Shown here: one piece after another, positions 1,037 to 64,000 of the stretch | Numbering within the stretch: the stretch's first letter is position 1 | How the letters are laid out: each line of letters opens with the position of its first letter | Assembly (NCBI RefSeq): GCF_037042905.1 | Contig: NC_087250.1 | Span: forward strand, 9,736,001 to 9,800,000 | Source: Lytechinus pictus | Taxonomy: Eukaryota | DNA length: 64,000 nucleotides | Direction: 5' to 3' | The notes under the pieces: model-generated | The model's input: only the letters and a program-made list of their open reading frames with translations | Told to the model about the DNA's origin: nothing | The model's database searches: none | Program-made: the position numbers and the translations under genes

Positions 1037-1085
<49 letters not shown>
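865..1085 (+). mobile_element. SINE core and tail with (TTA)n(TA)n; the (TA)n is expanded in copy C (~38730-38788)
   Basis: gtgctgcactcaac.caggtgaggtgaatgggtacc core; tail matches that of the 59278-59583 SINE. Confidence 0.75.
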
Positions 1086-1088
<3 letters not shown>

Positions 1089-1195
1089 CCACTCCTGCAC
1101 TACCATTCACACATGCATGCACAGCATTATGATTGATCTGATCTTTAAACAAATGAGTAACTTTGAATAAATATTTGTTTCGAAAAAAACATTAA

Positions 1196-2224: not shown

Positions 2225-2270
2225 GTAGGGGAGACCGGTGACAATTGTAACATGTGGCAAATGTAACAGA
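2225..2270 (+). mobile_element. Possible left terminus of a pogo/Tc1-like DNA transposon remnant
   Basis: gtaggggagaccgg followed by two tgtaaca direct repeats; no matching right TIR found. Confidence 0.35.
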
Positions 2271-3719: not shown

Positions 3720-4447
3720 AAAAATGTGATTTTTTGAGCCCCCAATGTGACAAGATGGTGGTTCCTTTATGTAGAAAAACAACTCTTATTTTATTGAAAT
3801 CACTTGGAGACAAAACAGTAGGCTCTTCTCTATCAGCTACATTATAAAGAAGTGAGGGCACAGCAAAGCCTACCCCCCCCCCCTTACGGGACCGCCAAAG
3901 TCCCCCATCCTTTTTTCGTATTTTGCCCATTTCTTGGAAAATTCGCAATTTTTGTAGCCCCCTTGAAGGGAAAAGACGTTTCTGCTTTGCAGTCAAGTCA
4001 CCTTTATTGTTTTTAACCACTTGGAGATAAAAGAATAGACTTTCCTCTATCTGCTACATATAGGGAAGTGCTGACACAGCGAAGCCTAATCCTAAACCCT
4101 CAGGGTGCTGCCGAAGTCACTCACCCTTTTTTTTTGTATTTTACCTATTTATGGGAAAATATGCCATTTTGGAGCCCCCATTGAGGCAAAAAGCTTTTCT
4201 GCTAGGTAAAAATGCCACTTTTATTGTTTAAAACTATATGGAGACAAAAGAATAAAGTTTCCTCTATCTGCTACATATAAAGAAGTGCTGATACAGCAAA
4301 GCCTATCCCCTCTGGGGACTGTCGAAGTTACCCACCCTTTTTTTATATTTTACCTATTTGTGGGAAAATATGCCATTTTTGGAGCCCCCATTGAGACAAA
4401 AAGCGTTTCTGCTATGTAGTAAGGCCACTTTTATTGTTTTTAAACTA
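3720..4447. repeat. Diverged ~210-217-bp tandem repeat; 4 marker motifs in A, 5 in B (~22445-23380) and C (~41431-42366)
   Basis: gagcccc-type motif at ~3737, 3955, 4172, 4382 with recurring tggagacaaaa...ctctatctgctacata. Confidence 0.8.
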
Positions 4448-38715: not shown

Positions 38716-38792
<77 letters not shown>

Positions 38793-41700: not shown

Positions 41701-44700
41701 GTCAAGTCACCTTTATTGTTTTTAACCACTTGGAGATAAAATAATAGACTTTCCTCTATCTGCTACATATAGGGAAGTGCTGACACAGCGAAGCCTAAGC
41801 CTAAACCCTCAGGGTGCTGCCGAAGTCACTCACCCTTTTTTTTTGTATTTTACCTATTTATGGGAAAATATGCCATTTTGGAGCCCCCATTGAGGCAAAA
41901 AGCTTTTCTGCTAGGTAAAAATGCCACTTTTATTGTTTAAAACTATATGGAGACAAAAGAATAAAGTTTCCTCTATTTGCTACATATAAAGAAGTGCTGA
42001 TACAGCAAAGCCTATGCCCTTTGGGGACTGTCGAAGTTACCCACCCTTTTTTTTTATTTCACCTATTTGTGGGAAAATATGCAATTTTTGGAGCCCCCAT
42101 TGAGACAAAAAGCGTTTCTGCTATGTAAAAATGCAACTTTTATTTTTGTTACTGTATGGAGACAAAAAATGGAGGTTCCTCTATCTGCTACATAATAAAG
42201 AAGTGCTGGTACAACAAAGCCTACCCCCTCTGGGGACTGCCGAAGCTACCCACCTCTTTTACGTATTTTACCCTAATGGGAAAATATGCCATTTTTGGAG
42301 CCCCCATTGAGGCAAAAATCGTTTCTGCTATGTAGTAAGGCCACTTTTATTGTTTTTAAACTATATGATGGAGCGTTGTGGCCCAGTGGATAAGTCTTCT
42401 GACATTGAAACATTCTGCTGCACTCGACCCAGGTAAGGTGAATGGGTACCTGGCAGGATTAATTCCTTGAATGCACGAGCGCTGAAAGGCAGCTCGAGCT
42501 AAAGCCGGGGTAATCATAATAATAACGCGCCTCGGAATAGAATATTTCTGGATAGATGGCGCTATATTGGGATGCCGTTGGGATGAAAGTATATTTCAGG
42601 TGGAATTTTCTTTGAAGAAAAAAAAGTTATATTCGTGCCAAATGTATTCTACTGTCTGTTATTATACTTTCAAACATCGTTTAATAGAAATATATAAATG
42701 TCAAATCAATGATTTATATTACATTTTCTATCATGATATGTCACTACTGGAAACCTATGTTTGTGTAGAAAAGTAACGAACAAAAATATGAAATGTTGTG
42801 TCACGTTTTTATTTTTATTTGTCTAAAATATGAAGATGTTTGGGGAAAAATGACACATAAATATTGTTCAACTCCCGATGAAAAAGCAAAGTGATAGAGG
42901 GGCATGATATACTCATTTGTTTGATATCAAATTCGTCATGATAGCACAAATATTTTATAAGATACAGTAAAATCTTATGATGTTTGGCAAGTGTCAACTT
43001 TTCTTTGAGTTTCTTTGGTGTATGTAAATTTTTGGCCTCATGGCAGCGTGCAAAGCCTTTCATATAAATGTTTTTAAAAAATACTGCTAAACCTCGAAAA
43101 CAAAGAAAAAAGGGTGAAACACTCCATGTAATTTACAAACCAATTCTCCATACGATTACAATCGACAATTGTTCACTGCCAAATATTTGTAAAAACATCA
43201 CAATTCGAAATAATTAATTTACAGTGGTCAGAAAGGATTGTAACATATATATAAAAGGCGTAGAAATGGATAAAACTTCAATAGGCCGCTTTCTGAGAAC
43301 AACAAGGGGAGCCCGGGCTTTAAATCTCAAAAGTACATACACTTGATAGAACTTCCCCTACCAAGGCGGGGAAAACCTGTCCAGGGTCCCGATATCTCGC
43401 AATACTGCATACAAACGTCACCTACTGGCTAGCTCAGTGACTTTGTCAAATTCGAGCAGGCTGGCAAATCACAACCCAGCATTCATTACACCGATATAAT
43501 AATGGGTGTGACGTAATTATGAAAAGTGGGCAGCTCTCCGATAAACAAATCACTGATCGGCCACATGGTTTTCGTCAACGAGAAAGCCACAAATGTTGAG
43601 GATATAAATCCACAGGTGAGAGGTAACTCACTGAGGTTCGAGCCATTATCCATATCAAATTTTTTTCGGTATGGCCTAAATAGAGATCTCTCTTGGCTGG
43701 ACAAAATTATATATTTTTTTAAAAATGATTTCAGGAATATTTCATGAGTTAATCAGCAATAATCATCTTACTAGGCTATCAATTTACTTTTAGGTACTTT
43801 CATTCTTTCTTGTCTAGCACACATTTAATTCTCCTCCAAACATGTTGACACTTGATTTCAAGATAGAGTAATATTGGAGTTCATTGTCACCTCATTTTAT
43901 TCTGAATGAGTCTTATATTAAGAGGCCTTTATCGATTACCTTATTCTTTTAATGCATATTCATGAGTCCAGGACGAAGCTGCTGTTTTGATACACCAATT
44001 TTCGACAGAGACTTTATAGGTTGATCTTTGTCACGAATGGGATTCGATAATACATGTTCTATGTTCTTGAAAGAGTTCTTCGTCGCAGCGCAACAACTTG
44101 ATAATGAGATGGGGGTATTGTTGATGAGATATTGCTTGAGTATCGTCTGAGGCGGTTTTCCGTCATGCAAAAGATGTGGAGCGTCGTGGCCCAGTGGATT
44201 AGTCTCCGGACTTTGAAACAGAGGGTCTTGGGTTCAAATCCCAGCCATGGCGTAATTTCCTTCAGCAAGGAATTCATCCACAGTGTGCTGCACTCGACCA
44301 AGGTGAGGTAAATGGGTACCGGCAGGAAGTAATTCCTCAAAAAGCTGTGTGCACCTGCTTAGCCGGGTAATAATGGTAGCAGGGCCTGCTGGGAGAACAG
44401 TTTTCGGAACTGAAGTGGCTACCCTGGGTAAAAATACCGTTATTATTATTATTATTATTATCATACAGATCGAGCTTGTCTTGGTGGATACATATTGTAA
44501 TCCTACCGAGTCTGGCCCGAATGCCTCTGGAAAGCAGACAGCAAAAAAAAAAACCAAGCATTTTATTTCAGAGACTCAAGGATGTAGGGAAGGGCAAGGG
44601 CAATATCACAGAATATTAACACAGTGACCAAACAAAATCAATTCAATTCTTTATTCCATTTCCATTCAAAACACAATACAAAGAAATATACATCAGATAC

Positions 44701-46207
44701 AATATTAGAGATGAGCATCCTTACTTCGTAATAAACAAAAAAAATCACAATGTCTTCCCTTTGAAGTAAATAGAAAACAATAATAATGTTTGTAACTAAT
44801 CATTTATATTGGGATTTATTCATTGTTTAGTCCATTCCAGGGCTCCATAACACAAAGGTTTGAACTCAATCGCTAAATACCAATGACCAATCAAGATCTT
44901 CGTTGCACGCGCACTCTGTTTAAAATACTGACCGGGAACGTTCGGTGCGGTTCTTTCATACATGCAATTCATCGGAAGCCTTTGTGTTACGGAGCCCTGA
45001 ACGTATTAATCTTGACTCAATGCAATGTCAAAACCTTAATTTGCACCTGCCCAAAATTTAGTGCCGCCCTGTTTCCATGGCAATGTACCGGTGCGTTGTT
45101 ACGTACACCTGGAATCCAAGCAACATGGGCATGATGGGGAAGCTACGAACTTAAGCAGAGGTTCAAGGTTCGAGCCCTGCGTTACTGATTAATCGTACGC
45201 TTGATTATGGATTGTACATCGTATTCAATGCAATACTTAATGACATAATAATTATATACAATTGTTATACAATAATGGCTTAGCCAGTATATACATACGC
45301 AATGGCGGTCATAAAGATACATGATATATAAAATAACCAATGTTACATAGTAATAATGAAAACATATAAAAGTCATTGTTGCTTTTGTCTGTAATCTGAT
45401 TGCGCCACACCAGTCGAGCCAGTGCATACAGGGTGCACCTTGGGGGCGTTTGCCCCCCCCCCCCCCTCCAAAAAAAAAAACGCTTTCACCACCAAGACAA
45501 AAAAGAGATAAAATGTAAGGAAATAAAACAGAGATGGGTGAAATGTATGTATACTATCATTTTCTGAATATTAAGTCAAAATCTATCACTAGATTCGATT
45601 TTTGTAACAAAAAATATCAAAAGTTTTGCTCGCTCTCTTCGCTCACTCGCAACATTCTATTGATTTGTTTTCCCGGTACGCCATATCTGGCACCTCAGTT
45701 CCTTTGGCTCATCAAACCACTGAGTCGAGCTGAGTGATTTGTTGAAAATAACATTATCTCCTTACGTTTTGTGCCATGAATATTTATGAGGCGTACTGAC
45801 TAAATAAGCCCCATGATATCGTAATTTAATATGTCAATCGCGTCGTAACCGAATTGAAGCCATTTTAGTCTTTCCCCGGATGAATAGCATTTCGGACTTT
45901 TCGCAATTATTACGGGGAAACTCTCTACAACGCATCAATCCCTTTGAAATTGCAAGTCAAACAACAATTGAGAGCAGAGAGGCTTTTGTCGAAAGTTGGT
46001 GGACCGGGACAGTATCGAAATATCTCGACTCTGGACAACGACATATGTGCAATCGTTCGCCCGGTGCAAATCGTCGGATGATCTGCTGTACCAGTCCACC
46101 CACTTTCGACAAAAGCTGCTCAGCTCTCCATTGTGATTTTAATTGCATTTCCAAAGGAATCAGTGCGTTGTAGAGAGTTTCCCCGTAGTAAATGCAAGGA
46201 GTCCCTA

Positions 46208-46435
46208 TTAACCACATGAAACAGGGACCTTGCAGACAAAGGGATATTTTAAAAAACAGAATGTGTCTCGCCATCCCGAACGTACTACCCAGTACATTGT
46301 GCAATATGGATTGGACAAGTCCAGTCCATATCCAGCAAGCCATTTGTTGTAGTTGAACGGTGTCCCATCTGTCCAAACAAAGGGACCAGGTAAGCTGGGT
46401 CGGTGAAGCCCGATCCAGTACCCGTTATCACCAAT
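46208..46435 (-). CDS. Paralog C C-type lectin exon 2
   Basis: 228 nt (one codon shorter than A/B), open to TAA TAG. Confidence 0.92.
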   Translation of the reverse strand: MGDNGYWIGLHRPSLPGPFVWTDGTPFNYNKWLAGYGLDLSNPYCTMYWVVRSGWRDTFCFLKYPFVCKVPVSCG

Positions 46436-49400
46436 CTGTAGGGAAATGACAGATAAAATACCAAAGTAGGCTTACATATTTTCGATGAAATCTGGGCCCG
46501 TAGCAAAAAGAAAGTTTGAATGTATAACCACATTTGCTTTGATTTTTATGAAAAGCCTGATGTACTTCTGCCAACAGTTTTCTCACTAAAAGGCGCCCAT
46601 GGCTTCATTGTGACACTATCCAAAAGGCGCGTACACCAAAATAACCATTCGAAACCGCACAGAATGGGGCCAAGGCCTTGAACTTTCCACCCATTTGCAT
46701 AATTGTTTAATCTTGTAATGGCCCGTATTCTGAAGGCGGGTTTAATTTAAACCCTGGTTTAAAGTTGTGGTTTAACAATGGAAAGCCAGTTGTTAAATAT
46801 ATCTCTTACAGTATAAGTTTCATGTATCAGCTCATTTGACTCCCAAAACATTATTAATTGCCTGGGAAGGATAAGTGTGACAGTTGTTCTCACCAGTAAA
46901 GAATTAGTAAAGAGCCAGTAAACATGAGTAGCATTCTGTAAACAAATTTGAAAAATTTGGCTTCTTATAATTTTAGCACAGAGTTATACCCCCGTCACAC
47001 TTATTCGGAATCAGCAGGAATCGAGCAGAAGCTGGAAAGAAAAAATATTCAAAAAATCTAGAAATTTTTGGGAGGAACTTATGAAATCATCAAACTGGAG
47101 TTGAAATTCAGTAAATTGACCAGGTGTATCATCATACACTAGTCAAATGAACCGCAATGGAGTCAGATTGATAATCGTGCTACGTTCTTGGACATTCTAG
47201 GGGCATTCTAAATATTCTGACTGCATTCTGAGTGCATTCGAAATATTTTTGTCATTTCTTTTGGCCGTCCCGAAGGTTTTGGTCATGTTCAAAACATTCG
47301 AGGGGTATTCTCGAACGATGTTGGAAGTAGATTTAAATGACCAATTGGTGGTCAAACAATAGTCCTTTCATTCAGGCCAATTCTGCTTGATTCGGAATAA
47401 GTGTGATGGGGGCTTAAGACCATGGTCTAAGCTAAACCCGAATTCAGAATACGGGCCTATGGGTGCATGTTTAGGAATAAGTGACCCCTTATTCACTGTG
47501 ATGGAAAATTTTATTTCAAAGCTGTCTTTAGCAGTCTCATTTGGCAGTAATGTTTATCAACCTATGGGCAGAATTCTGTGCAAAAATGAAATCGATTTGT
47601 TTATTCATGGATGAGTGAGCACGAATTAAAAAGGGAAAAGGGCGTATTTTCATTGTCACCGACTCTTCTTTAGGGGTTGTTAAGTGAATCATTGGGGCAA
47701 ATTCAGATTCAAATGTGACTTCAACTGCTGTTGTTTTTAATCATCCATCATATTTATCACCACGCACTTTCCGAACTTTTTACACTTTCATGGTTGAGCG
47801 AGCACAATCGAAAACTCTTTTTACTGCATAAATGTATTCTTTTCCTAACTCTTTTTACTGCATTCATGTATCATTTTCCTAACAATTTCTCAGGATCAGT
47901 TGAATTCATGGACAAATCAAGGCAGAATTTGAAAGTGGAGAGGGGCCAAGAAATTGGGGGAGGAGAGCGACTAACATTTTCCAATTTTAACATGTTTTAA
48001 CTACCATTAACCCCTATGATGATCATGATACATCACAAAAAAATTGTGCTCACTCAACCATTATCAAAATTTTGTGTGGAGTGGCTAATTAATGGATAGT
48101 AAAACATAAAATTCACAAAAAAAACATACAGCAACAACCTTTGCCTTACTTTCTGTTTACACCATCTGAAAAACGACTCTTGTGACTTTCAAAAATAGTC
48201 ATTTTTAATTCAATCTTTGATTCACCGGCGTAAATCCACTGTGAGGAGTGGGGAATGATTGACTTTTTTGACGATTTTATTTTCTGTCGATCTGACACTT
48301 GGGTATAAACACACACTCTCACTGACCCCCACAGACCCCCTTACACACATTTGTATATTTATTTTGCAAGTGATTACAATTTTCTAGTTTTTAATCGCAT
48401 TTCCTAACATAAATTCTAAAATATGAGCGAGCAAAGCGTGCAAGCCAAAAATAACCACCTTTTTTGTTTTCAATCGCATTTTCAAATAGAAATTCTAAAA
48501 TATGATGGTTGTTTATGACAGATATTCAAAGATTTTACTAACGGATTAATTAAAATATATTTTCTTTCTTAAAAAGTGGATGGATATTTGTACACGCCAT
48601 CCCCCCTCTCCAAAAAGTGGGGGGATGTATCCCCCGTCCCCCCGGGATTTACGCCAATGCTTTGATTACTCATGCATGACGCAACTGATCAATCTCATTC
48701 CCCCCAGGAGTTGCTTAATGAGTGTAGACAACCACCTACGAAATATCATATTCTAAAATTATTCCGTTCAAAAGTTACAGCATTTTTATTTAGGGGGGAA
48801 TTACTTTTTTGTTGTGTATATGTATGACTATATATTTAATCAAATCAAATCGGTCGTGCGATCCAAAAGAGTAAATAGGGGGTAGTTTCATTAATATTTA
48901 AATATTGATGAAACACCGGGTCACTCGGCGGGAGCGTTGGTAATTTCACCGAGCCTATTTATCAATCTATTTCAGGAGGTAAATCTACTTAAAAACAAAC
49001 ATTTTTTAAAACGTTTAACAAATCTTGAAAAAAGCTTAGTTGAAATATTCTTTTAAAAATGTGTTTGATGATTTTTTAACAGACTTTGATGTTCCTGTCA
49101 TTACAGGTTGATAACATTGAAAGATAATTTTTAGCATTGAAAATATGTTATTAAGATGTTTCTTTAATTTCTGAACAAAAATCATCATGAAAATTTGGAA
49201 AATGGTTTTGTTAAACACTGATGAATTCTTCTCTATTAAGGATTTTGATAAACGTAAAAAAATATTTAAAATAGTGTTTAATATCTTCTAAATACTTTAT
49301 CATGACCTTTCTAGAACGTTAAATGTTATTGAAGTAATATTTTGATAACATTTAAAAAAATGTTTTGTTTCTGAAAAGTATAATTAGTATGATATTATCA

Positions 49401-52400
49401 AAGCGTAAAAAAAAATTTACGTTTCGGGAAAACAAAAGATAATTCTTGTAAAGAATATTTAGCTATAATATTTTGAGAACATATTTTTTAAACTTTTATA
49501 CAACTTTTAAATGCATTAATTAAGTTTTACCAAAGTTTCAAGATGGTATTTTCTTATATCAAATGTATTTACCAACGCCGTAAATATAGAGATGTTAGTA
49601 AAACGTTATTTTGTTTCTGAAAAACAATATGCATCATAATAACATCAAAATAAGGATATTTGTTTTCTAATATGTTTAGTTATTTGTTTTAATATATACC
49701 AATACATATATATACAGTGCGTCCCAGAATAAACGAAACCGAGATTTAGCGATGATTTATCATAACTTAATCATAAATACAATATACAAATTACCTATCA
49801 ATGTAAAGCTTAGAATCTCCTCTTTCATCTGATATTACTTAGATTATTTCTCATTCACGCATGAGTGAGCAAAAACAATTTGAATAAAGGATACCAAAAA
49901 CTCATTTGGCGGGGGGTATCTGAATTTCAAAAAGAAAATCACATGCCTAAAATGTTCAATATCTGCTCTTTCATTTGATACCTTAATCACAAAAAATGGT
50001 CCAGAAGTAAAAAAGTTATGTTCCCTCGAAACAATGCTTGTATTTCCATAATTTCATTAAATAAACTTGTTTTCACCGGTTTCCCACAGAAGCTATCGCA
50101 CGGTTAACAAAAGACTTAGTGCATGGCTGATCTTCAACAAAACGGAGTATCGAGTGAGTTTGAACGCTAGCCTGTAAAACCTCTTCATCTTATGAAATTA
50201 TTGAAATTCAAGCCTTATTTCAAATAACCAGAACTTTCTTATTTCTTGACCATTTTCTGTAATTGAGGTATCAAATTAAAGAGGAGATATTGAACTTTTT
50301 TAAAATGTGGTTTTCGTTTTGAAACCCAGATACAGCCCGCCAAATGACGTTTCGTTATCCCCTCTTCAAATTGTTTTTGCTCACTCATGCGTGAATGAAA
50401 AATGATCTAAGTAATTCCAGATGAAAGAGGAGATTCTAAGCTTTACAATGGTAGGTCATTTGTCTATTGTATTTGTGATTAAGTTATGATAAATTATTGA
50501 TAAATCTCGGTTTCGTTTTTTGTGGGAAGCACTGTATATAATAATATACCAAGTATATTTCAGCGCCTTGAGCACATAATCAATGTGGATTTGGCGCTTT
50601 ATAAATACTCTATGTTATTATTATTATTATTATTATTAATAGCATCAGTGGCGGACCGTGACTCGGAGGAGACAAAGCAATGGAGGGGCCCTGTATTGTT
50701 TGCGAACAATGCTGTGCCCCTCCAATGCTTTGTCTCCTCCGGGTCACGGTCCGCCGCTGAATAGCATATTTTCACAATTTTTCAAGAACGTTTGTTGTTA
50801 TTGTCACACACAATGCTGAACATTACAAAATGTGAGTAAATATATATGTGTATATATTAATGTTAAAATTATATCATAAAAATGTCAAAATAAGGATGTT
50901 TCTGATATTTTGTTAAACATCATTAAAAGCATTGTAAAAACATTGCTAAAAATGTTTTGTTATAATATTTGAGAAACATAAACATGGCCGTGGGGCGTTA
51001 CTAAACCGAATGTAAGTAAAGGTGACAAAATAATTACAATTATATTACTGTATTTGCTTCGAGGGTCAATTCAGGGAATACTTGTTAAGGGTACAGTCTT
51101 ATTTCCAATACTTGTTAGGGTACGGTTTCACACGCCAATACTTGTTAAGGGGTGTATTTTCAGAACATGGAAAATACTTGTTTAGGGTGCTTTTCGAAAC
51201 CCAATGGACGTGCCTAGTATCCATTCGTCAATAGAAGTGCCCCCCCCCCCCGGATCGCCCCGGATAGGTCTAATGATTCAAAAGGCTAAACAAAACAATT
51301 GCTGCATACCACACATTTAAGTTAGGGCCTTTTCACACGTAAATCTTGAATCATCATTGCAATGATGATTGCAATTCGTCTTTAGAATCATCGGACCTTT
51401 CACACGGAAAATTCGTATCGTAATTAGAATGAAACCTAACTGGAATTCACCTCAGGAATAGAATTTGAATTCGTGAATGTGATTAGCGTTCGTGATTCTA
51501 GTTTGGTTCCACACGTGCAAAAAAATCGTCACTATAGCCTTTTTTTTTTTTACTGGAATCGTCGTTCAAATTACGATTTTTTTTTTTACCGTGAGAAAGG
51601 ACGGTTAGTGACCTGAAAATACTCACTAGCTTTCGCAATGTAGTTGTGAAATTTAGTTCCTCTTCACTATGGATAGAAACCAGATCCCCACGACATGACT
51701 GTCCACTGGTGAAATTACGACAGGTATACATGGCGCCTGTAAAGCTTGCTAACTCGTAAAATGATTCGTAGCAACTTCTTTCAAAGAGTTTCCATGATGA
51801 ATACGGGCAAAGATCTGCAGGTAATAATAATAATAGGCATTTATATGGCGCCATCTATCTAGAAATATTCTATTCCGAGGCGCGTTGTTATTAGTATTAT
51901 TACCCCGGCTTTAGCTCGAGCTGCCTTTCAGCGCTCATGCATTCAAGGAATTAATCCTGCTGGGTACCCATTCACCTCATCTGTGTTGAGTGCAGCACAG
52001 TGTGGATACATTTCTTGCTGAAGGCTGGGATTCGAACCCACAACCCTCTGTTTCAAAGTCAGAAGACTTATCCACTGGGCCATAACGCTCCACAATGTAC
52101 AACAAAGAAAAGCAGAGATGGTGCCTATTATTAATTAAAATAGTTGGAATTCGGAGGGGTTTGAGTAATTTGTCTACTATTAAATCATACTGCATAGCTC
52201 ATGTAGCTCTGATGCACATCGGGAATGCATTCACCCTTTGTATTCACAATGCAGTGTAACGGCAATCGCAGGTATAGCCAAAGATACTACAAGGCGAAGA
52301 TCGGACACTTCGACGGTTTTTTGAAACGCTCGATATATGCTTATGGGGAAGGGCGCCAAACAGCGTTGAGTAAGTAAACCTTCGCATACCTGCACGTGAC

Positions 52401-52421
52401 TGTGTATAATAATAATAATAA

Positions 52422-52464
<43 letters not shown>

Positions 52465-52975
52465 CCTGTAGTAGAGAACGACGATGTAAAACTTTTATGG
52501 GATTTTAATATCCAGACAGACAAGGTCATTGAAGCTAGACGACCAGACATCGTTCTCTTAAAGAAGAAGGAAAAGGAATGTCTCATCATAGATATTGCGA
52601 TTCCGGGAGACTGCAGAGCTTGGCGTAAAGAGGAGGAAAAGATACAGAAGTATAACGATCTGGCATGGGAGCTGAGAAGGATATGGAAGGTGAAGACGAA
52701 GGTGGTACCAATAGTCATCGGAGCCTTAGGAACAGTGACAACAAGACACAGAAGCTGTCTGGCTGTTCTAGGAGTCGAGGTGTCCTTTGAAACGATACAG
52801 AAGGCAAGCTTGCTTGGAACAGCTCATATCTTACGGAAGGTCTTGAATTAGAAAGAGAAGTGAACAATGAGAAGAGGACCCATTTGATAGAATATAGAAC
52901 AATAACCCTAGATTTCTGGAAGAAGTCCGGTTGCTGTTTAATATACCAACATAACATCAAGTTGTGGACAATGGA

Positions 52976-53031
<56 letters not shown>

Positions 53032-56000
53032 GAAATTATGGTCAAATAAAGAAAAGGAAAATCTTATGACTTGCTTCTACTTTGCGACTGATGTATCTCA
53101 TAAAACTAGACATTACAGGAAGATAATGAGAGAAACGTGGCTTGAAAATAATGGTGATCCATCCGTTGGAGAGCAAGCTCTGGCAGACATGAAACAAAAT
53201 ATCCTTCGTACTCAATATTTCAGCGAGATTGAATTAGAGAGAATAAAACAAAAGGCACATATACTTTGTAGAAAAATTGATAATGCCGGTAATGACGAAA
53301 CCAGCGACGATCATGGGGATGGTGATGACAAAAATGCCGGTCCTGACAATGCCAACGATGGCCATAGATATGCTGATGACAAGAATGCCGTCGATGGCGA
53401 TGCCAACGGCGACCATGGTAATGAAGATGACAACGAAAACCATGATGGTGATGACAATAATGTCGGTGTTGATGATTTCAACGATGGCCATGATGATGCT
53501 GACAACAATGATACCGGTGATGACGATACCAATGATGATCTCGGTGATACTGAAGTCAATAATGCTGGCAAGCCTAATGACGATGCCAACGACGACCATG
53601 CTGAAGCTAATAACGATGAAGCAGATAATGACAATGCTGCTATAAACGATAACCATGGCGATGTTGTGAACAATGACACAGCTGATGATGACTATGATGC
53701 CGATATTGATGGTGAGAATGTGTATCATAAAGGCAGGAACGAAGGAGGCCAACCAAATAAAGACGGGAGAGTAGAAACGTGTGACAAGAGATTATCAAGA
53801 CATCCACCCAAGGCCAATGATACGACATGGCCAGCCAATTATAATGAAAATTCGAAGATCACAGATACACAATCGCTACACAGCAAAGTGAGGAGGAAAA
53901 GAGAAAAGAAATTATGGTCAAATAAAGAGAAGGAAAATCTTATGACTTGCTTCTACTTTGCGACTGATGTATCTCATAAAACTAGACATTACAGGAAGAG
54001 AATGAGAGAAACGTGGCTTGAAAATAATGGTGATCCATCCGTTGGAGAGCAAGCTCTGGCAGACATGAAACAAAGTATCCTTCGTACTCAATATTTCAGC
54101 GAGATTGAATTAGAGAGAATAAAGGAAAATGCCCAAAGTCTTTGTAGAGAACGAAAGCGTAATGCAACAAAGAATCAAGATGACAGGGGAAAACGAATAA
54201 CAGATAAAGTAGACAAATTGCACGACACTAACAATGATAGAGAGAGATCGGGAAAAGGAGAAAACTCGGTAATCACCAACACTGAGAAGGTGAGAAATTC
54301 TATCCATGATGAAGGAAGTACAGTTTCTGGAAATACAGTGAATATATTTCTTGACGAGGGGATTGTATTCAACAATCAACAGGATGTTCGGACGCAGAGT
54401 GATAGGGGCTTACGAGATGGAGAACACAACCAAAGAATATCACAGGAACAACGTATGAATCGTCTTGATATGGACAGTGCTCAGAAGAAAAGAAAGAAAG
54501 ATGACTACATCGCTCAATTTGGGGCGTGTTCCTTGTCTCTTCTACAAAAACTAGATGAAATCGAAACGGTAGACACACATATTGAGGCCGAATACCAAAG
54601 AGGAGCACATTTCTTTCAGTACTGTGACACATCTGACAACAAGCCCGCTGGTGGAGAGGGAAAGGGATCAACGATGAACAGAAGAAAAAACAGCTCTTAT
54701 AAGACTGGATTCTCTTCACATGTAGACATACACCAACACTTGCAACAACCTAAAGTGAAATCTCGTACTCTTCGGGTTACAGCAATAGAAAAGGCTAAGA
54801 AAAGACAAGAAATTACTGAGACTGAACATGGGGACGATGTTGCCCATTTTCTATGCGGTGGAGAGCCTCGCATTCAACAAGATAAAGAATGTGAAAGGAA
54901 CGTATCGGGTAATATCAAATCATCTGTACCCGAGAGAGATGCGATTGTATCACAAGACTCGACAAATGAAGACAGAGATTCCGATCAACGGCTGTTATCA
55001 GCACTGAGGAGCAACTTTGAATATGTGAAGGGAATATCAATATCAGATAGACCCCAAATTCCCAAGATCGACACAAGGTGCTGTACTACTAGGAGCGTGA
55101 TCGACAAAGTAGATAAAATGCTTGAAAAGGTGCAATCTAGTCCTTCCAGTTTGTTGGAGATAAACTGTCTTATCTGGGCAGGAGCAAAAACTGTAACAGA
55201 ACATATGGGACTCAAGCTTCATTCATCAAACCACTCTACCAATCATAAGAAGAAGGCTCCTGAATGGAAGAAAAGGCTACAAACCAAGATAGCAGAACTA
55301 CATAAAGACGTGGCTCAACTCGGAGAAGTAGATAAGGGAAACATAAAATCCAATCGGATGAAGAGCAATGCCAAAAGACTTCAGAAGAAATATCGCATTG
55401 ACGATAAGACCCGTACTAGGACAACTGTTATAGAAACGCTCAAAATGAAGATAAATGCTCTCAAACACCGTGTTAAGAGATACACAAAGAGTAACAATTT
55501 CAAACGGCAGAATAAACTCTTCCATGGAAACAGAAAGAAATTCTTTCGTGAGCTGGATTCAAAGATGACTGAGACGAAAGATGTTCCATCGGCAGATGAT
55601 ATGAAGAACTACTGGAAAGAACTTTGGGATAATGATATCACTCACGAAGAAACTCCCTGGATTCAGTCGGAAGCAGACAAATGGTCCAATGTGCCAGCGC
55701 AGCAGCTAGTAGACCTGACCTTACCTGAACTACAAAACTACAAAATACTAATCTACTGAAAATCATCAATGACATTATCAGAGGGAACAGGACTATTGAG
55801 AAATGGCTGCCAATTGGAAGGACCTATCTACTGTACAAAGGCAAAGACCCAAAACAACCTAAGAACTATCGTCCAATCACTTGCCTTAATACTATGTATA
55901 AGCTGCTGACATCAACGCTTGCCATGCACATCGAACGACACATCGATGATCATGACATAATGGAGGTCACTCAGAAAGGTTGTCGAAAAGGAAAGAAGGG

Positions 56001-59000
56001 TTGTAAAGATCACCTAATGACAAACAAAGCAATAATCGGTAATGCTCGCCAAAGACAGACCAATCTATCCATGGCTTGGATAGACTACAGGAAGGCATTT
56101 GACAGCGTACCACATAGTTGGATCATCAAAGTTCTAGAGATGTATCACATCAATCCACAAATAGTCAAGTGCATATCAGCAGGCATGAAACAATGGAGCA
56201 CTACTCTTTCGCTTACGATAGGCACCCGTTCGATGACAGTGGAGGGGGTCCGAATCAAGAGAGGAATATTTCAAGGAGATTCCTTATCTCCTCTTTTATT
56301 CTGCTTAGCTCTCAATCCAGTATGCTCTCTCTTACACGCTACGAGTTATGGCTACAGATACAAAGGGCAAGATGTATCTACGACAATAAACCATCTGATA
56401 TATATGGATGATATCAAACTCTTTGCAAAAAATGACGATGAACTTCACAAGATGATAGCAGTAGTTAAACATTTCAGCGATGACATCAAGATGTCGTTTG
56501 GTATAGACAAGTGTGCCAAAGTTACACTTGTACGAGGAAGGAGGGTAAATACAGGCGACATGTTTGTGCAAGATGAGGAAACATCAATCAAGGAACTGAC
56601 TAATGATTCGACATATAAATATCTAGGCATAGCTGAGAACGATGCCATTAGCCATAACACAATGAAGGAGAAGGCAACATCAGAATACAAAAGAAGACTC
56701 GGGCTGATCCTTAAATCCGAACTGAATGCCAAAAATAAGATTGAAGCGATCAACACTCTAGCCATTCCTGTGCTTAGATACAGTTTTGGTATTGTTAACT
56801 GGAGACTTTGTAAATATTTGAGTGATGAGTTAAACCCTAGATGTAAATGTATGTTTGATTACTGGTTTCAGCAACTGGGTGGTATAAAAGTTATTATGAA
56901 TTGTAAATATAATATTAAAAACAAATGTTTTTTGGAAAACATGATGCCTTATTTCTATTATAACTTGATATCAACGTTTTTCTTATTAAAAAGGTATAAC
57001 TATTCAAGAAATATTCAAACAGATATACAGGATAATTATAAAAAAGAAATGATTTGGCTTAATAAAAATATCTTATACAAAGGGAAAATGTTATTTTATA
57101 TGAATTGGATAAACTCTGATATTTTGTTTGTGGGGGATTTAATGGATGATAAGGGTTTTCTACCTATAGATAAGATTAGCGCTAAAATAGTAGTTAAGGA
57201 CGGAAGGTGGTACAGTCAGTATGCTCGTATACGACAGGCTATTGAGTTATGTGGCAACATGTCTCTTTTTTCTAATTCAAGTTTATTACAAAAGAAGTAT
57301 TCGGAATTTAGATCCAATGTTAATGTATATAATGATATAAGATTGGTTAATAGTATTATTTCATTAAGTAAATTGACAGTTAGGAAAATATATTATGAAT
57401 TGATCCAAGTAAAAACTGAAGAATCTAGAGCAGAGGAATCTTGGTGTAATACCTTAGTATTTGACTGTTTACCAATTTGGACAGATGTTTGGTTATTTAA
57501 GTTAAAGTTAGTTAAGGACAATGTACTGGTCAATTTTAATTTTAAGTTCATGTATAATATTTTGGCAACACCAGCTAACCTTTTTAGATGGAAATTAAAA
57601 GAAAATGACCAATGTTTTTACTGTGATCAAAAAGGTGATTGCAGTCATATGTTTTTCTCTTGTAACATAATGATAATATTTTGGAAAAAAGTTGAAGAAA
57701 ATGTACAGAAATATATTTTGCAAAATTTTCATTTCCAGCCATGTCATATATTATCAGGAATTTCATTTAGATCAAAAGAAAAAAATGATGTAGATATAAT
57801 TTTGAATTATGCTTTATATACCATTTATAAATGTTTCGCTGGAAAAGAATCTAAAAGGAAAATAACGATTCAAAGGCTGTTTAATATTTTGTTTTACCTA
57901 TTAAGATATCGTTTACAGATAGAAGAAAATGTGAAATCCAGAAAACCATGTATTTCCCTCCAGAAATGGAGGCAAATGTTAGCACTGTGAATATATTTTG
58001 TTTAATGAATAAAGAAGACCAGCAATGGTTATTTTACAAAAAAAAAAAAAAAAAAAAAAACTGGAGACTAGCTGATATATGTGGCCTAGATATTATGACC
58101 AGAAAGCAATCAACGATGCACAGATTACATCACCCAAAGGCCGCAATCGAAAGGTTGTACCTTCCCCGTGATCTTGGAGGAAGAGGTCTACAACAAATTG
58201 AGATGGTCTGGAATATGGAAGCAACGAACCTCGCCAACTACCTATCCAATCCACCTGATATACTGACGAGTATATCCCTCGATTATGATAAATGTCAAGC
58301 AATATACTCCATTAACAAGCAAGCATCTATCTTATTGGCACAACATCGACTGACACTACCCTACGGTGAAAAAGAGAAGGCAAGACTTAAATGCTCCTTT
58401 CACAAGAAACTTCAAGAGCAACTTAAATCCAAGCGACTTCATGGCCACCACGAAAAACAGACGCATCGGGAGTTCGTAGACCAGAAAGACACACATCAAT
58501 GGCTTAAGTCGGCGGGACTAAGAGGTGAAACTGAAGGGTTCGTCTATGCTATTCAGGACCAGGTGGTGAGGACCCGTGCCTACGAAAAATCTATCCTCAG
58601 AAGAGACACAGACGACACTTGCAGGATGTGTGGAAAAGAGACCGAAACAATCATGCATTTGGTATCAGCATGTTCGACTCTTGCTGGAACTGAGTACATC
58701 ACAAGACATGACAATATTGCCAAAGTTATCCATTGGCAACTACTGAAGGATCGCGGTAAAATGACTTGTGATCACGCTTGGGAACATCAGCCACAAACGA
58801 TCACCACGATCAATAACAGCACCATATATTGGAACTGTGGCATACTAACGGATAGAACCATCAACTGCAACAAGCCGGACATCATCGTCAGAGACAACAA
58901 CGTAGTAAATATCATTGAGGTCTCTGTTCCCCATGATATCAACATTGCTGTAAAGGAAAGAGACAAACGGCTCAAGTATCAAGACCTAAGGATTGAGATC

Positions 59001-62000
59001 GAGAGGATGTGGAACGTGAAAGCAGAGGTCACACCAGTCATCATTGGTCACTCAGGAATGGTGAAGAAGGGAATGGAAGCCTGCATAACCAAGATCTCTC
59101 CTCACCTTCGGATGTACGACATTCAGAAGGCAGCTATCTTGGGTACAACCAGATTGATAAGAAAGACTCTCGGACATTAGTAGTGTAAAGTTCCTAGTTG
59201 CACTTGAAATTACTTGGTGCTTTTTGTTAGAGCAAAGTTATTCAAGAAAAAAATACGGACTTGATCCTGTTTAGAGGAATAATAATAATAAACAGTTCTT
59301 GTATAGCGCATATCACGATTATGAATAATGTCTCTATGCGCTTCCAAAGGACTTGGATATTATTACCCCAGCTGTAGCTTGGCAGCCGTAATTACTAAGA
59401 TTACAGCGCACACGCATTTCAAGGAATAAATTCCTGCCAGGTATCCATTCACCTCACCTGGGTTGAGTGCAGCACAATGTGGATAAATTTCTTGCCGAAG
59501 GAAATTACGCCATGGCTGGGATTCGAACCCACAACCCTCTGTTTCAAAGTCCGGAGACTAATCCACTGGGCCACAACGCTCCACTAATTGTATAAAACCT
59601 ATGGGGAAAATGAGAGGGGATTTTGGAGGGGTTTGAAGAGGGCTCAATGGTGGCGCATGGAAATAATTCCACGTTATATTACCAAGAAACCTCTGAAATA
59701 TATTCATCTCAAATTTAAGGGGAATAAATTGAATGAAACAAATTCAAAATGTAAAATCGTCTATTCCTTCAGCCCTTCTTCATATCTCTCATATATTTTG
59801 TACACAACCATCTCGCGATACGCAAAGGTAAAAACAGGTCGTTATTTACTCAACGCTGTAGGGCGCTCTTCCCGAGCGTTTCCAGGGGGGTGAAACTCCG
59901 CTTCTGCATCCGGTCAGAATTGGGAAAAATTTTAGAGGGTCAAAAGTGGACACTGCTCCCATTTTTCAAGTACAAGCCTAGAGACACCGCCACTGTATTG
60001 GTACACCAGCGAAATGGAGGCGTGGTCATGAAACGTCCTTCATGCATAGCGTAAATTAGCATTTTGTCACTAATTAGAATAATGTGCGACCTGATTGAAT
60101 ATCGTTGGTGTCGCTTTAGCTCGAGCTGCCTTTTAGCGCTCATGCATTCAAGGAATTAATCCTGCCGGGTACCCATTCACCTCATCTGTGTTGAGTGCAG
60201 CACAATGTGGATAAATTTCTTGCTGAAATGAATTCTTATTTCTTATGAAATTAAATGAAAATTTCTTGCTAAAGGCTGGGATTCGAACCCACGACCCTCT
60301 GTTTCGAAGTCAGAAGAATTATCCACTGGGCCACAACGCTCCACAATGTACAACAAAGAAAAGCAGATATGGTGCCTATTATTAATTAGAATATTTGGAA
60401 TTCGGAGGGGTTTGAGTAATATGTCTACTATTAAATCATACTGCATAGCTCATGTAGCTCTGATGCACATCGGGAATGCATTCACCCTTTGTATTCACAA
60501 TGCAGTGTAACGGCAATCGCAGGTATAGCCAAAGATACTACAAGGAGAAGATCGGACACTTCGACGGTTTTTTTAAACGCTCGATAAATGCTTATGGGGA
60601 AGGGCGCCAAACAGTGTTGAGTATTTAAACCTTTGCATATCTGCACTCGACTGTGTATAAAACCTATGGGGAAAATGAGAAAGGGGATTTTGGAGGGGTT
60701 TGGAGAGGGCTCAAGGGTGGCGCATGGAAATAATTACACGTTTTATTACCAAGAAACCTCTGAAATATATTTATCTCAAATTTAAGGGGAAAAAATTGAC
60801 TGAAAAATTTTCCAAATGTAAAATCGTCTATATCTTCAGCCCTTCACCATATCTCTCATATGTTTTGTACACAACCATCTCGCGATACGCAAAGGTAAAA
60901 AAAGGTCGTTACTTACTCAACGCTGTAGGGCGCTCTTCCCGAGCGTTTCATTACGCGGTCTATGTACTGTCCGATCTTCCCCTTGTAGTATATTTGGTAT
61001 AGCGTTTCGGGGGGTGCTGCATATGGGGAATAATACACGCAGCACCCCCTAGGAAAACCCCATCACCCCGCTGACACATTCATATGTTCTTGAAAGCATT
61101 CTGCGTCGCGGTGCTAAACTCCCTATTTAGATGCAATAGAGTTTCGTACCGCGACGCAGAATGTTTTTTTTTAGAACATAGGAATGTATTACAAAAAGGT
61201 TTTCGTGACAAGGGGTAACAAAGAGGTATTTGCCGAAAATTGGTGATACATAACAGAAGTTTTGTCCGGGACTCTGGACGAACGATATATTTGCAATTTT
61301 CGTGTTTTTAAAAAAAATATTTATTTCAATACGGTTAAAAAAATACTTGCTTTCAGCCGACAAGGCTGTTTTTCAGCAAGTCCGTACAATTCAATTTACA
61401 AAATTCTCAAAAACAAGTTGAAAAATAAAAACGGGTGTTTTCTACTCGCCGTACGGGGAATGGGACCGCATCGTTAGGACGAAACTGCTGATTTGGTTCA
61501 CCAATATTCGACAAAGACCTTCCAGCTTTTCATTGTCATTTGACGCCTATTTTCATATCGGTTTGTGTTATAGGAAAAAGCGATCAGCCGATACAACGTG
61601 CAACAATTTACTACATGGAATTATAGACCAAGCTTCAGAAAAATTGAGGGGACGGAAACAGAACTACTCCATTGATTCATATGTCGGTTCGATAATGAGG
61701 GTGATGATGGTGAGGAAATAACATAAAATATTAAATCCATGCTGCACATATGTTTCTTATACTCCACTTACTTCATTTACTTGAGTTTAATTTAAATCCA
61801 AAGTTCAGAATAAAGGACAAATGAGCTTACTTAACATGTTTACCATCACAAGAATAATAGTAATGATAATGATATAACATTTATAGGGCGCTTAATACAG
61901 ATGTTTCTAAGCGTTCAGTTTTCTGCTTTCTTTTTGAATTACCGGGGGAAAAAAGTGGTCTTAATGATTTCAAAACAAAATTTAAAGAAACAAACGAAAC

Positions 62001-63284
62001 GCAACTAAGATACGCGCCTCCATATAGACCTACCCACAACTGATATCTAGACATTAAAAAGGTGGGTCTTTAGCAAGGTCTCAAGGGAGTTGGAACTATG
62101 GATACGTGATTGTAATTTATTCCACTGGATTAGAACAAAAACGGAGAAGGCTCGATCACCATAACTGGTATTTGTACGTGGTCCTAAAGTTAGCTGCAAG
62201 GTTTTTGCAGAACGAAGTGGTCTGAGTGAGCTAGAAGAGCGGAGAGAGATGAGGTTAGAGAGATATTCAGGAGCTAGGCCATTGATTATTTTATACGTCA
62301 AAAGAAGATCTTTGAAAACGATGCGCTGGAAGCCAATAAAATGATTTCAGAATATGTGTGATATGTTCAGATTTTCTTGAAAGAGTAACAAGCCTTGCAG
62401 CAGTATTTTTCATTCTTTCGAGTGGGCGTTAATGTGAGAGTGGGAAACCAGAGCGAGCAGAATTGCAGTAATCAAGGTGGAAAGATACAAAAGCATGTGC
62501 TAGTTTAGCAGTTATGGTCATGGTGGTCGGGTCGAGTAGCTTCCTCATTTTTCCACAATTGGAAAATCAAATCCATGTAGCAACGTACCGTATTGAATTT
62601 GACCAGTAACAGAGCCACCATTGGGGTCGTTACATGTGTCAAAATGGCTTATCAATCCTTTTCATTTGCTCTTTATATCGTAAGTTTCCTGTATTGCAGA
62701 ACATGGATCGATGTCTTTTCGCTTTGTTTTCCAGGGGTCCGTTGCAGAAAGAGTTGCGTTTATTAAAACGCAAGTAAAAAAATCAATCGCAAGTCCTAAA
62801 TGCACGATGTTGATTGGTTGAAAATCAAGTTGCGCAAGATTTTTAGAGTTGCGATTGATTGCAACTCTTTCTGCAACGGGCCCCTGATTGACTATTAGTA
62901 AATGTACATAATCTTTTTAAGCAAGACAGGCGCCCTTTTTAAGAGGTTGATAGTCCAGACAAATCCAAGGCTACCTTTACAAAATATGAAATAGGACACT
63001 TATTTTGACAATCAAAGCTTTACAGGTTTCAACATCGACACGGTAGCGAATTGGAGCGCAAAGAAAAGGGTTTTTGGGGCGGTCATCGTCTTCCCTTGCT
63101 GCTCTCACACTTGAACATTCTTTATTTCGAAACCTACTATCGGTTTTTTCATCCACATTCTGGTCGTTTTTATACATACCGACTGCACATGTTGGTCCTT
63201 GAAACCTGGCTGAACAGGAGCAGGTGAAACCTTCCAGTGTTTCCGTGCATGTTCCTCCATTAAGACATGGGTTGGGTAAACAGT
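46208..63284 (-). CDS. EGF + C-type lectin protein, paralog C (5' exons lie outside the window); exons 63284-63180, 51814-51627, 46435-46208
   Basis: Three intact exons with conserved splice sites; last exon reads ...[41 protein letters not shown]; introns much longer than in A/B. Confidence 0.85.
46720..47457. mobile_element. MITE containing a nested MITE at ~46987-47413
   Basis: Outer ggcccgtattctgaa...ttcagaatacgggcc; inner cccc.tcacacttatt..gaatca...tgattcggaataagtgtgatgggg flanked by TTA (Harbinger-like). Confidence 0.8.
48223..48659. mobile_element. hAT-type MITE
   Basis: 8-bp TSD ctttgatt; TIR ca..ggcgtaaatcc / ggatttacgcc..tg. Confidence 0.85.
49715..50534. mobile_element. Tc1/mariner-type non-autonomous element with very long TIRs
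   Basis: ta|cagtgc.tccca...aaacgaaaccgagattta ... taaatctcggtttcgttt...tggga.gcactg|ta. Confidence 0.85.
50646..50759. mobile_element. Palindromic hAT-type MITE
   Basis: 8-bp TSD aatagcat; cag.ggcggaccgtgac...gtcacggtccgcc.ctg. Confidence 0.9.
51627..51814 (-). CDS. Paralog C C-type lectin exon 1
   Basis: 188 nt; [17 protein letters not shown] versus [17 protein letters not shown] in A/B. Confidence 0.92.
52408..52463. repeat. (AAT)n microsatellite (distal part of the SINE tail)
   Basis: Read directly. Confidence 0.95.
52464..52975 (+). mobile_element. 5'-truncated R4/Dong-type non-LTR retrotransposon (restriction-like endonuclease C-terminus plus 3'UTR only)
   Basis: ORF to 52851: [10 protein letters not shown]...RRPDIV...IIDIAIPGD...[10 protein letters not shown]...[10 protein letters not shown]...[16 protein letters not shown] (PD..D..K REL motif); (AAT)n on both sides. 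Confidence 0.88.
52976..53029. repeat. (AAT)18 microsatellite between the two R4-type elements
   Basis: Read directly. Confidence 0.95.
53030..55759 (+). pseudogene. R4-type ORF, N-terminal part (duplicated N-terminal domain, D/N-rich spacer, pre-RT region)
   Basis: Open frame from the (AAT)n junction to TGA 55757-55759; P.WK.RL and QNKLF..N.K.FF motifs; breaks just before the RT. Confidence 0.8.
55738..56807 (+). pseudogene. R4-type reverse transcriptase domain
   Basis: Frame open from ~55738 (LLKIINDII...GRTYLLYK...[16 protein letters not shown]) through YMDD to FGIVNWR. Confidence 0.9.
56808..58058 (+). mobile_element. 5'-truncated L1/Tx1-type LINE (ORF2 C-terminus with zf-RVT-like zinc knuckle) nested in the R4-type element
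   Basis: TSD AACTGGAGACT at 56797-56807 and 58059-58069; AATAAA at 58008; poly(A) 58038-58060; [25 protein letters not shown]...H.FFSC; markedly more AT-rich than the host element; TT|AA target. Confidence 0.9.
58059..59180 (+). pseudogene. R4-type ORF, C-terminal part (thumb, CCHC, REL endonuclease)
   Basis: Resumes at NWRLAD after the TSD; open to TAG at 59178-59180. Confidence 0.9.
59278..59583 (-). mobile_element. tRNA-derived SINE whose tail hosts the R4-type elements
   Basis: Minus strand tggagcgttgtggcccagtgg (A box) ... ggttcgaatcc (B box) ... caggtgaggtgaatgg core ... aagaactgtttattattatt; TGTATAA duplicated at 52403-52409 and 59589-59595. Confidence 0.88.
63180..63284 (-). CDS. 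Paralog C EGF exon
   Basis: 105 nt; one synonymous change versus A/B (ACA/ACG). Confidence 0.92.
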
Positions 63285-64000
63285 CTGAGATCGAGAATTT
63301 GACGTGACACGACAAATTGAAGTAGATGGGAAAGTGAGTTAGCAGGGCATATAGAAACGGAGAAAAGAGACAAAGGCAGAAACGGGGAGACATAAAAAGA
63401 CAGAAGGGATGGTTTGGGAAATAAAAGTGATATTGCCATCTTTATCGTCAGAGGAACAATTGTATTCAAAACCTGTTATTTTACTCTCAAAACACTCGAC
63501 GAGCGGATCCAGGGGGGCACATTCGGCCCGTGCCACCCCCTTTTAGGAGGCATCAGTATTTTTTGTTTTGGTCATTCATAGACGTGAGGACTTATTTTTT
63601 TATTTTATTTATTTTTTTGGCTTGTCAAATTGTTCATGGAACAAAATGACATTTCTTTGATATTGAAGACCTTTTTTTGAATGTCATTTTTTTCTACATC
63701 AAATAACCTCGAATTGGTAGTGAGTTATTTTTTTTCCAACATTTTCCTATAAATACGTGCCTCCCCCTCCCCATTAGAAAATCCTGGATTCACCCAAGCT
63801 CGATACAATCCACACCCTTGTAGTACAAACTAGACAATGCTTTTTTTTCCATGGCGTGAAATTGGTAGTTTCATTAGTATGTGGGCGATTCCATGCTAGA
63901 AAAATCAGCAATTTTCTCAACATTTTTCAACCTGCTGTCCAGACGAACGAAGAACTTCAATTTGCTTTGTGGTAATATTGAAGGACTACTGGGTAGACAT

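Follow-up and report, generated by a model that had tools for sequence, protein, structure and literature searches.

According to the available part of PMC3812793, TAA microsatellites are the target of Dong in the silkworm and of its mosquito and snail relatives, DongAg and DongBg. The accessible portion of PMC7998251 gives the same target for Dong relatives of ostracods, insects, molluscs and cnidarians, and describes R4/Dong elements with a (TAA)n target as carrying a diverged Myb/SANT-like domain and lacking zinc fingers. A hepatitis delta virus (HDV)-like ribozyme is reported at the 5′ ends of Dong and R4 (PMC3774820, in the part available). Here, we analysed a 64,000-nucleotide stretch of the Lytechinus pictus genome (the window; contig C6, NC_087250.1, 9,736,001-9,800,000) and searched the 811.7-Mb assembly of 368 contigs to which it belongs. 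The window holds a 7,186-bp composite in which two families of long interspersed nuclear elements (LINEs) with a restriction-like endonuclease (REL), named S and L, are stacked at the tail of a short interspersed nuclear element (SINE). We consider it highly probable that this stack was built by serial retrotransposition into the SINE tail, with both REL families specific for (AAT)n.

S and L share a number of characters with the described Dong-like elements (Dong of Bombyx mori, DongAg, DongBg and Darwinula Dong1/2). A single open reading frame (ORF) encodes their reverse transcriptase (RT), CCHC knuckle and C-terminal REL nuclease. As far as the accessible parts of PMC7998251, PMC3812793 and PMC3774820 describe those elements, the (TAA)n target, which is the same as (AAT)n, the fixed orientation and the repeat on both sides are also common to them. 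So is the absence of an N-terminal zinc finger, and an N-terminal helical module with Myb/SANT-like neighbours may be a further common character. L differs from the Dong-like elements by five tandem modules in an ORF of ~2,430-2,460 amino acids, whereas its ~1,200-amino-acid relatives have usually one module, and two in 2 cases. No 5′ HDV-like ribozyme was detected in S or L, unlike in Dong and R4. The best solved matches to L are proteins of R2, which inserts into 28S ribosomal DNA (rDNA; structures 8gh6, 8ibw, 9dou and 9nl2), and the CCHC region is aligned as well. R2 uses target-primed reverse transcription through an N-terminal DNA-binding domain, and by analogy the same general mechanism would be expected for S and L. 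S and L differ from R2 in their microsatellite target, in lacking an N-terminal zinc finger and in low sequence identity. Waldo, Mino, Kibi and Koshi also insert sequence-specifically into simple repeats (PMC3812793, in its available part); unlike S and L, they have an apurinic/apyrimidinic endonuclease (APE) and use other repeat motifs.

The composite lies within a miniature inverted-repeat transposable element (MITE). Its parts, with window coordinates, are as follows; array figures in brackets are from Tandem Repeats Finder.

52278-52409, plus strand: left part of the host MITE, with its 30-nt left inverted repeat at 52278-52307; it runs through the first TGTATAA and aligns with the empty copies.
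52403-52409, no strand: target-site duplication copy 1, TGTATAA, by direct reading of the sequence.
52410-52463, plus strand: a (TAA/AAT)n array, perhaps lengthened, that forms the distal part of the SINE tail (52406-52463, period 3, (ATA)19.7, 96% matches).
52464-52975, plus strand: 5′-truncated family S stub of 512 bp, with the last 128 codons (REL) at 52465-52848, the stop codon at 52849-52851 and a 3′ untranslated region (UTR) ending ...GGACAATGGA.
52976-53029, plus strand: (AAT)~18 array at the boundary of S and L (52976-53031, 18.7 copies, 100% matches).
53030-56807, plus strand: family L part 1, 5′-truncated, with two of the five N-terminal modules and the start of the RT (RVT_1, 2.3e-30).
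56797-56807, no strand: target-site duplication copy 1 of a nested L1-like insertion, AACTGGAGACT, from paralogs with an empty site.
56808-58058, plus strand: 5′-truncated fragment of an L1-like (APE-type) LINE, with the C-terminal 393 codons, the 3′ UTR and poly(A) from 58038 (zf-RVT, 2.3e-4).
58059-58069, no strand: target-site duplication copy 2 of the nested insertion, AACTGGAGACT, by direct reading and from paralogs.
58070-59277, plus strand: family L part 2, with the end of the RT region, the CCHC knuckle, the REL nuclease (stop codon at 59178-59180) and a 3′ UTR ending ...CCTGTTTAGAGG.
59278-59289, plus strand: (AAT)4, the four proximal units of the SINE (ATT)n tail.
59290-59585, minus strand: SINE body of 296 bp with its head at 59585, from genome copies.
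59589-59595, no strand: target-site duplication copy 2, TGTATAA, separated from the SINE head by the bases aat at 59586-59588.
59589-59885, plus strand: right part of the host MITE, with an inner inverted repeat at 59842-59873 and 93% identity to 60654-60949.

The order of the stack, its coordinates and the TGTATAA duplication had been proposed in a first-pass annotation of this DNA, and a base-by-base check found all of them correct. A search of the whole window gives exact matches to the 17-mer GACTGTGTATAAAACCT at 9802, 28728 and 60649 (3 matches against 0.17 expected; 0/100 shuffles reach 3). At the composite it is split into ...gactgTGTATAA followed by (taa)n at 52399-52409 and ...ccactaat followed by TGTATAAaacct at 59589-59599, with TGTATAA doubled. 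The first-pass annotation had described the three matches as empty sites. They are indeed unsplit, but they are not independent MITE insertions: all three lie in paralogous duplicated segments that can be aligned over at least 1.4 kb at ~92%, and over a stretch of 500 bp two of the three show no difference. They can still be taken as valid pre-insertion comparators.

By its characters the host repeat is a genuine MITE, as had been proposed: it is short and non-coding, and it has terminal inverted repeats and many dispersed copies. The unit is ~469 bp long (60529-60997 in the intact neighbour), and its 30-nt terminal inverted repeats are 93% complementary. At least 743 candidates were counted in the genome, and copies scattered over many contigs align with this stretch of ~470 bp at 84-91%. 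Here and below, the genome-wide figures for L, S, the SINE, the MITE and the L1-like family are from samples of best-scoring copies. The filled copy, which starts at 52278, no longer has the outer inverted repeat on its right side, and its similarity to the others ends near 59885. Fragments resembling the SINE in reverse adjoin MITE copies at 52023-52093 (94% to the SINE head, 71 nt) and at 60113-60345 (~75%, ~210 nt).

The SINE has at least 3256 candidate copies in the genome, and the 40 that were scored are all 99-100% identical. In 16/16 fetched copies the body ends ...ACAAGAACTGTTT and is followed by (ATT)3-9; outside the window the SINE thus has the end ...GAACTGTTT(ATT)3-9. In the window the SINE ends with exactly four ATT units, which pass without a gap into the reverse complement of the L 3′ end. 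The other strand of the (ATT)n tail reads (AAT)n, the motif that both REL families require. Because the TGTATAA duplication encloses the tail, the LINEs and the SINE together, the LINEs entered a SINE tail that was already there. ARAGORN found 0 tRNAs in the SINE head, and Rfam gave no tRNA match at E <= 1. The head contains TGGCCCAGTGG and GGTTCGAATCC, 44 nt apart, which we take to fit the consensus of the pol III A and B boxes.

The junctions of S and L elsewhere in the genome were examined in sampled stretches, which carry labels such as L001 or L080 for either family. All 16 independent 3′ ends of L read ...CCTGTTTAGAG(G/A)(AAT)n, that is, TTTAGAG(G/A) and then the array. At the 5′ side, (AAT)n stands immediately before 23 of the 24 independent true ends. 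These fall at 23 or more separate positions of truncation, and two full-length starts (AAGATGGTCTCC...) are among them. Three rows (L001, L036 and L037) were dropped from this count, as they are internal interruptions and not true 5′ ends: L001 is the nested insertion in the window, L036 is the fourth paralog of the stack, and L037 continues upstream into L sequence. For S, the 3′ end is followed by (AAT)n in 24/25 copies (5/5 and 19/20), and the 5′ end is preceded by an (AAT)-type array in 7/7. Copies without (AAT)n at both ends had been named as the observation that would count against target specificity, and the counts for both families run the other way. At neither end does any sampled copy show (ATT)n in its sense strand, which indicates that insertion is strand-specific. 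The first-pass claim that both families share one orientation is borne out: both stand on the plus strand here, and orientation is strict among the sampled copies.

The same arrangement recurs outside the window. The 3′ flank leads into another L or S copy in 11/36 sampled cases and adjoins a reverse SINE-like element in 8/36. For the 16 L flanks, compared by BLAST, S or L comes next in six (L007, L010, L012, L015, L016 and L020) and reverse SINE-like sequence in four (L005, L008, L017 and L019). Among 20 S flanks, S or L comes next in five (L073, L074, L078, L081 and L087) and reverse SINE-like sequence in four (L075, L077, L083 and L084). The 'SINE2' reference used for some of these assignments was taken from the flank of L005 itself, and matches to it are 78-88%. 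In L020 the order is L, array, S, (AAT)6 and reverse SINE. In L005 a composite of array, L, array and reverse SINE is bounded by the 7-bp repeat ACACTCC, a duplication that makes it a second case of a LINE entering a SINE tail. In line with the proposal that SINE tails may seed such stacks beyond this locus, stacks recur next to reverse SINE-like elements at independent sampled loci. The SINE tail as a landing pad for two (AAT)n-specific families is supported by the duplication and the empty sites here and by the junction statistics and independent stacks elsewhere. The literature searched gave no account of SINE tails seeding Dong-like stacks; Repbase Reports and subscription papers were outside this search.

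The arrays differ in length. Beside L the median is ~50 nt by a crude measure, free SINE tails measure 9-27 nt, and the stack in the window has ~42 array units altogether. These lengths suggest that each insertion may regenerate the target. They fit the addition of a tail at insertion, and they also fit a preference for long arrays or slippage.

Several points weigh against serial insertion into (AAT)n. The longer arrays beside L could mean one of the two processes just named and not tail addition. The 5′ junction of L012 (2761-3033, G000:C14) joins S-internal sequence without an array and is the sole exception among the 24, and the S copy L080 has a single AAT unit at its 3′ end. Six of the 16 L flanks and several S flanks enter unclassifiable sequence. 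The sampled copies are the best-scoring ones, so the fractions above are not genome-wide rates. The L012 junction itself may be a template switch or a deletion.

Other features of these flanks were also observed. In L078 (G000:C1 28290597-28290917), a 15-bp L copy, GATCCTATTTAGAGG, lies between (AAT)n arrays downstream of S, which is an extreme 5′ truncation. In L072 and L081, which are independent loci, the S 3′ array borders on another repeat family, with the sequence GTGACTT[A/G]TAAAGCGCCAAATCC...; it is possibly a further kind of element that offers its (ATT)n tail. In L015, L043 and L084 the array motif switches from (AAT)n to (ATT)n and back to (AAT)n in one uninterrupted microsatellite between stacked copies.

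The locus was very probably built up in four steps. A young SINE entered an old MITE on the minus strand at TGTATAA, bringing an (ATT)n tail that reads (AAT)n on the plus strand. S and L then inserted into this tail, both in plus orientation. The whole block was next copied with a segmental duplication of ~32 kb, so that four now stand on the contig. Finally, an L1-like element entered L in this paralog only. The insertion step itself may be pictured after R2. The module would bind the repeat, and the REL nuclease would nick the (ATT)n strand. Paired with the (AAU)n terminus of the LINE RNA, the freed 3′ end would prime reverse transcription. Nicking and priming of this kind would fix the orientation, always antisense to a SINE whose tail is used, and would leave (AAT)n on both sides of each copy. 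With (AAT)n on both sides, the pad would stay available for the next insertion.

The two families were further characterised from their genome copies. S has at least 168 candidate copies (98-100% identity) and L at least 158 (99-100%), and both families appear young and abundant. The full-length S copy L067 has an element at 422-4286, ~3.87 kb long, with a single 1151-amino-acid ORF. Full-length L copies are ~7.8 kb, with single ORFs of 2432 and 2463 amino acids. Pfam detected RVT_1 in S (4.5e-27) and in L (6.6e-29) and gave no Exo_endo_phos match in either. The best solved-structure matches of L, the R2 proteins, reach E 2e-26 over the RT and the linker, with the CCHC knuckle also aligned. 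At the C-terminus, the motifs RPDIV...IIDIAIP and KPDII...IIEVSVP...K, read from the sequences, are of the PD...D/E-x-K type, and this C-terminus aligns with R2 proteins. With one ORF, RT, CCHC, a C-terminal REL nuclease and no APE, S and L class as REL-endonuclease (R2-group) retrotransposons without long terminal repeats (non-LTR). The S stub and the L C-terminus are 34% identical over 122 amino acids (E 4e-23), and the proteins are collinear with 37% identity across ~1000 amino acids. The strong divergence that the first reading had seen between the two REL C-termini is therefore real, and on protein comparison S and L are separate families within one lineage.

Both copies in the window were dead on arrival or have decayed since. 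Of S there is no more than the stub of 512 bp. L is without three of the five modules and is frameshifted: compared with other copies it has a deletion of ~76 bp near 55734-55745, which removed a conserved stretch ahead of RVT_1 and shifted the frame. On C3 (77819208-77828266), four tandem S copies with a period of ~2.52 kb are followed by a 5′-truncated L, and either serial insertion or unit amplification may have produced them. An OTU-like cysteine protease domain (PF02338) was found beside the RT in two relatives of L, P0097 and P0113.

Architecture and target make R4/Dong-like the likeliest assignment of S and L. The ribozyme searches weigh against it: no HDV-like ribozyme was found at the S or L 5′ ends by Rfam at E <= 1 on L067 and L041, a method that misses such ribozymes easily. 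A crude descriptor of the HDV-like nested double pseudoknot, which overlooks them just as readily and is not specific, gave 0 candidates in three 5′ ends, and 25/200 shuffles gave at least one. S and L could instead be HERO-clade elements or come from an unnamed REL lineage, with the (AAT)n specificity convergent or wider among REL LINEs, and this assignment, unlikely as we judge it, keeps a real chance of being right. HERO elements, which we compared by description only, are LINEs of the REL type found in fish and marine invertebrates. For some of their families, specificity for microsatellites is reported (PMC4640811, in its accessible part), and a sea-urchin family, HERO-1_SP, exists (PMC7650587). 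The homologue search and the protein atlas returned only 'hypothetical' or 'unnamed' proteins as relatives of L, and the missing ribozyme also points this way. Most HERO families, however, are described as non-specific, unlike S and L. The target motif, the single ORF, the lack of an N-terminal zinc finger and the apparently Myb/SANT-like module all match the description of R4/Dong in the available part of PMC7998251. In addition, S and L share their target at 37% identity, which indicates that the specificity is old in their lineage.

S, L and the SINE might also have been brought together by exchange, through recombination or gene conversion, between the (AAT)n arrays of separate loci. Trinucleotide arrays that are long and perfect recombine readily, L012 shows L fused to S-internal sequence without an array, and tandem S arrays with a ~2.52-kb period occur on another contig. 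We nevertheless consider this origin improbable. The composite is bounded by an exact 7-bp duplication whose site is intact in three paralogous copies, and L005 has a composite duplication of its own. Stacked copies elsewhere differ in their truncation points, as expected for independent abortive reverse transcription.

The order of events could also have been different, with S and L first entering an ordinary genomic (AAT)n array and the SINE landing beside them later. SINE insertion sites are often AT-rich, and many L and S copies lie in arrays without a nearby SINE. This order is contradicted here and is very improbable: the empty site GACTGTGTATAAAACCT holds no (AAT)n array, and the arrays, the two LINEs and the SINE stand as a single block between the TGTATAA copies. 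Hardly credible, finally, is that (AAT)n is merely the elements' own 3′ tail, as (TAA)n is that of the Drosophila I factor, with non-specific insertion and coincidental upstream arrays: a templated tail alone would explain the 3′ ends, but 23/24 L and 7/7 S 5′ junctions also lie in (AAT)n at many truncation points, and an element with a mere (AAT)n tail would not give such junctions at arbitrary points.

The N-terminal module is a candidate for recognition of the repeat. The S and L proteins have an N-terminal module of ~75 residues with the apparent pattern W-x2-E...Y...W...L-x-(N/D)-x-(R/K)-x-I. Full-length L has five of them in tandem, with Asp/Asn-rich linkers between, and its ORF is about twice the size of that of the ~1,200-amino-acid relatives, which keep the module. 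In the four longest copies, a motif scan found five modules in L041 (2384-9901, G000:C14), L042 and L043, and four in L044, where a gap may hide the fifth. The window retains two at 53030-54150. The predicted model of the module is a four-helix bundle with a predicted local distance difference test score (pLDDT) of 86.8 from a 30-sequence alignment. A VIA structure search with it gave Z values of 4.3-5.9, and about half of the 50 listed neighbours are Myb, SANT or telomere-repeat-binding proteins by their entry titles. The neighbours include Zeste, NgTRF, GT-1, TRF1, Tbf1, c-Myb and DMAP1. Silkworm R2 stands at rank 5 with the DNA-binding region of its N-terminus (8ibw_C, 141-215; Z 5.6, 73 residues aligned, rmsd 3.7). 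Three results weigh against a Myb/SANT fold: Foldseek against PDB gave no match to the module at E <= 0.001, Pfam Myb or SANT was found in 0/30 module sequences, and the VIA Z values are below the safe level of the tool for helical domains. Because of these Z values, the Myb/SANT-like character of the modelled module is only suggestive.

In neither S nor L did a motif scan reveal anything C2H2-like upstream of the RT. No protein of 1311-4172 amino acids matched the N-terminal 1,100 residues of L at E <= 1e-5; this search is weak, as it was word-based and the query is of low complexity. No multi-module (multi-Myb) Dong-like protein is described in the literature searched, with Repbase Reports and subscription papers again outside the search.

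The kind of element and its target are already known, and the known picture of Dong biology is unchanged by this locus, which is a fairly ordinary example of a repeat tail attracting site-specific elements. What it adds, in a modest way, is an L protein with five modules and the documented route through a SINE tail. Site-specific LINEs are usually seen in niches provided by the host, such as rDNA, telomeres and microsatellites, and here the niche is the tail of another mobile element. Two duplications and the empty sites allow the insertion steps to be dated, and the same pattern recurs elsewhere in the genome. Tentatively, the five Myb/SANT-like modules of L may grip the tandem repeat at several registers, and thousands of young SINE (ATT)n tails, together with the (AAT)n tails of L and S, may form a self-renewing network of landing pads; we hold this to be possible, if rather doubtful. 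If it is true, the pad network would decide the locations of these LINEs genome-wide, and the SINE and its partner would create the niche of another family. In this apparently young system, with copies 98-100% identical, trinucleotide recognition, fixed orientation and a self-enlarging target can be addressed, and the five-module L protein offers a natural experiment on DNA-binding valency.

The insertion nested in L is 1,262 bp long with its duplication (56808-58069). It has a run of 23 A and an 11-bp duplication, AACTGGAGACT, and deleting the 1,262 bp restores the reading frame of L. At least 74 candidate members of its family were counted in the genome, at 94-99% and with varied 5′ truncation. 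The fragment itself had no match in PDB at E <= 1. Longer relatives (51% and 38% identity) have RVT_1, and two of three, P0130 and P0131, have Exo_endo_phos too; the best solved match of P0130 is human L1 ORF2p (1.3e-94). The fragment is the C-terminal part alone, and the poly(A), the 11-bp duplication, the variety of truncations and the relatives with APE and RT support its being L1-like. Of the first reading, which had called it L1/Tx1, the L1-like part stands through these longer relatives.

The stack is present four times on C6 at a spacing of ~32 kb; compared over 5.3 kb, the paralogs match the window with 99.7-99.8% identity. In the three others the site is uninterrupted, with GTTAACTGGAGACT followed directly by AGCTG and no L1-like insertion, so the L1-like element came in later than the segmental duplication. 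Apart from the MITE, each layer differs from its family relatives by no more than ~1%, which indicates that the pile was built quickly. The fourth paralog has ~5.5 kb of other sequence (G000:C6 9883788-9889262) between S and L, and its L begins at the equivalent of window position 53990. The 1.5 kb of this sequence covered by L036 (1-1500) contains no ORF of at least 80 amino acids; possibly one more element entered the stack here.

The gene context was scanned with 108 open frames of at least 55 amino acids, from 38000-52400 and 59600-64000, against Pfam. The nearest exons that Pfam detects, one on each side of the stack, are a Lectin_C exon (46211-46471) and an EGF exon (62980-63441), each on the minus strand. 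If these exons belong to one gene, it is plausible that the stack lies antisense inside a lectin intron. For annotation, long (AAT)n-bounded blocks in the introns of tandemly duplicated genes may be such stacks. The whole region (window 1-64000; G000:C6 9,703,000-9,937,000) is a tandem segmental array carrying C-type lectin and EGF exons, with a period of ~18.9 kb in the first 45 kb of the window and ~32 kb beyond.

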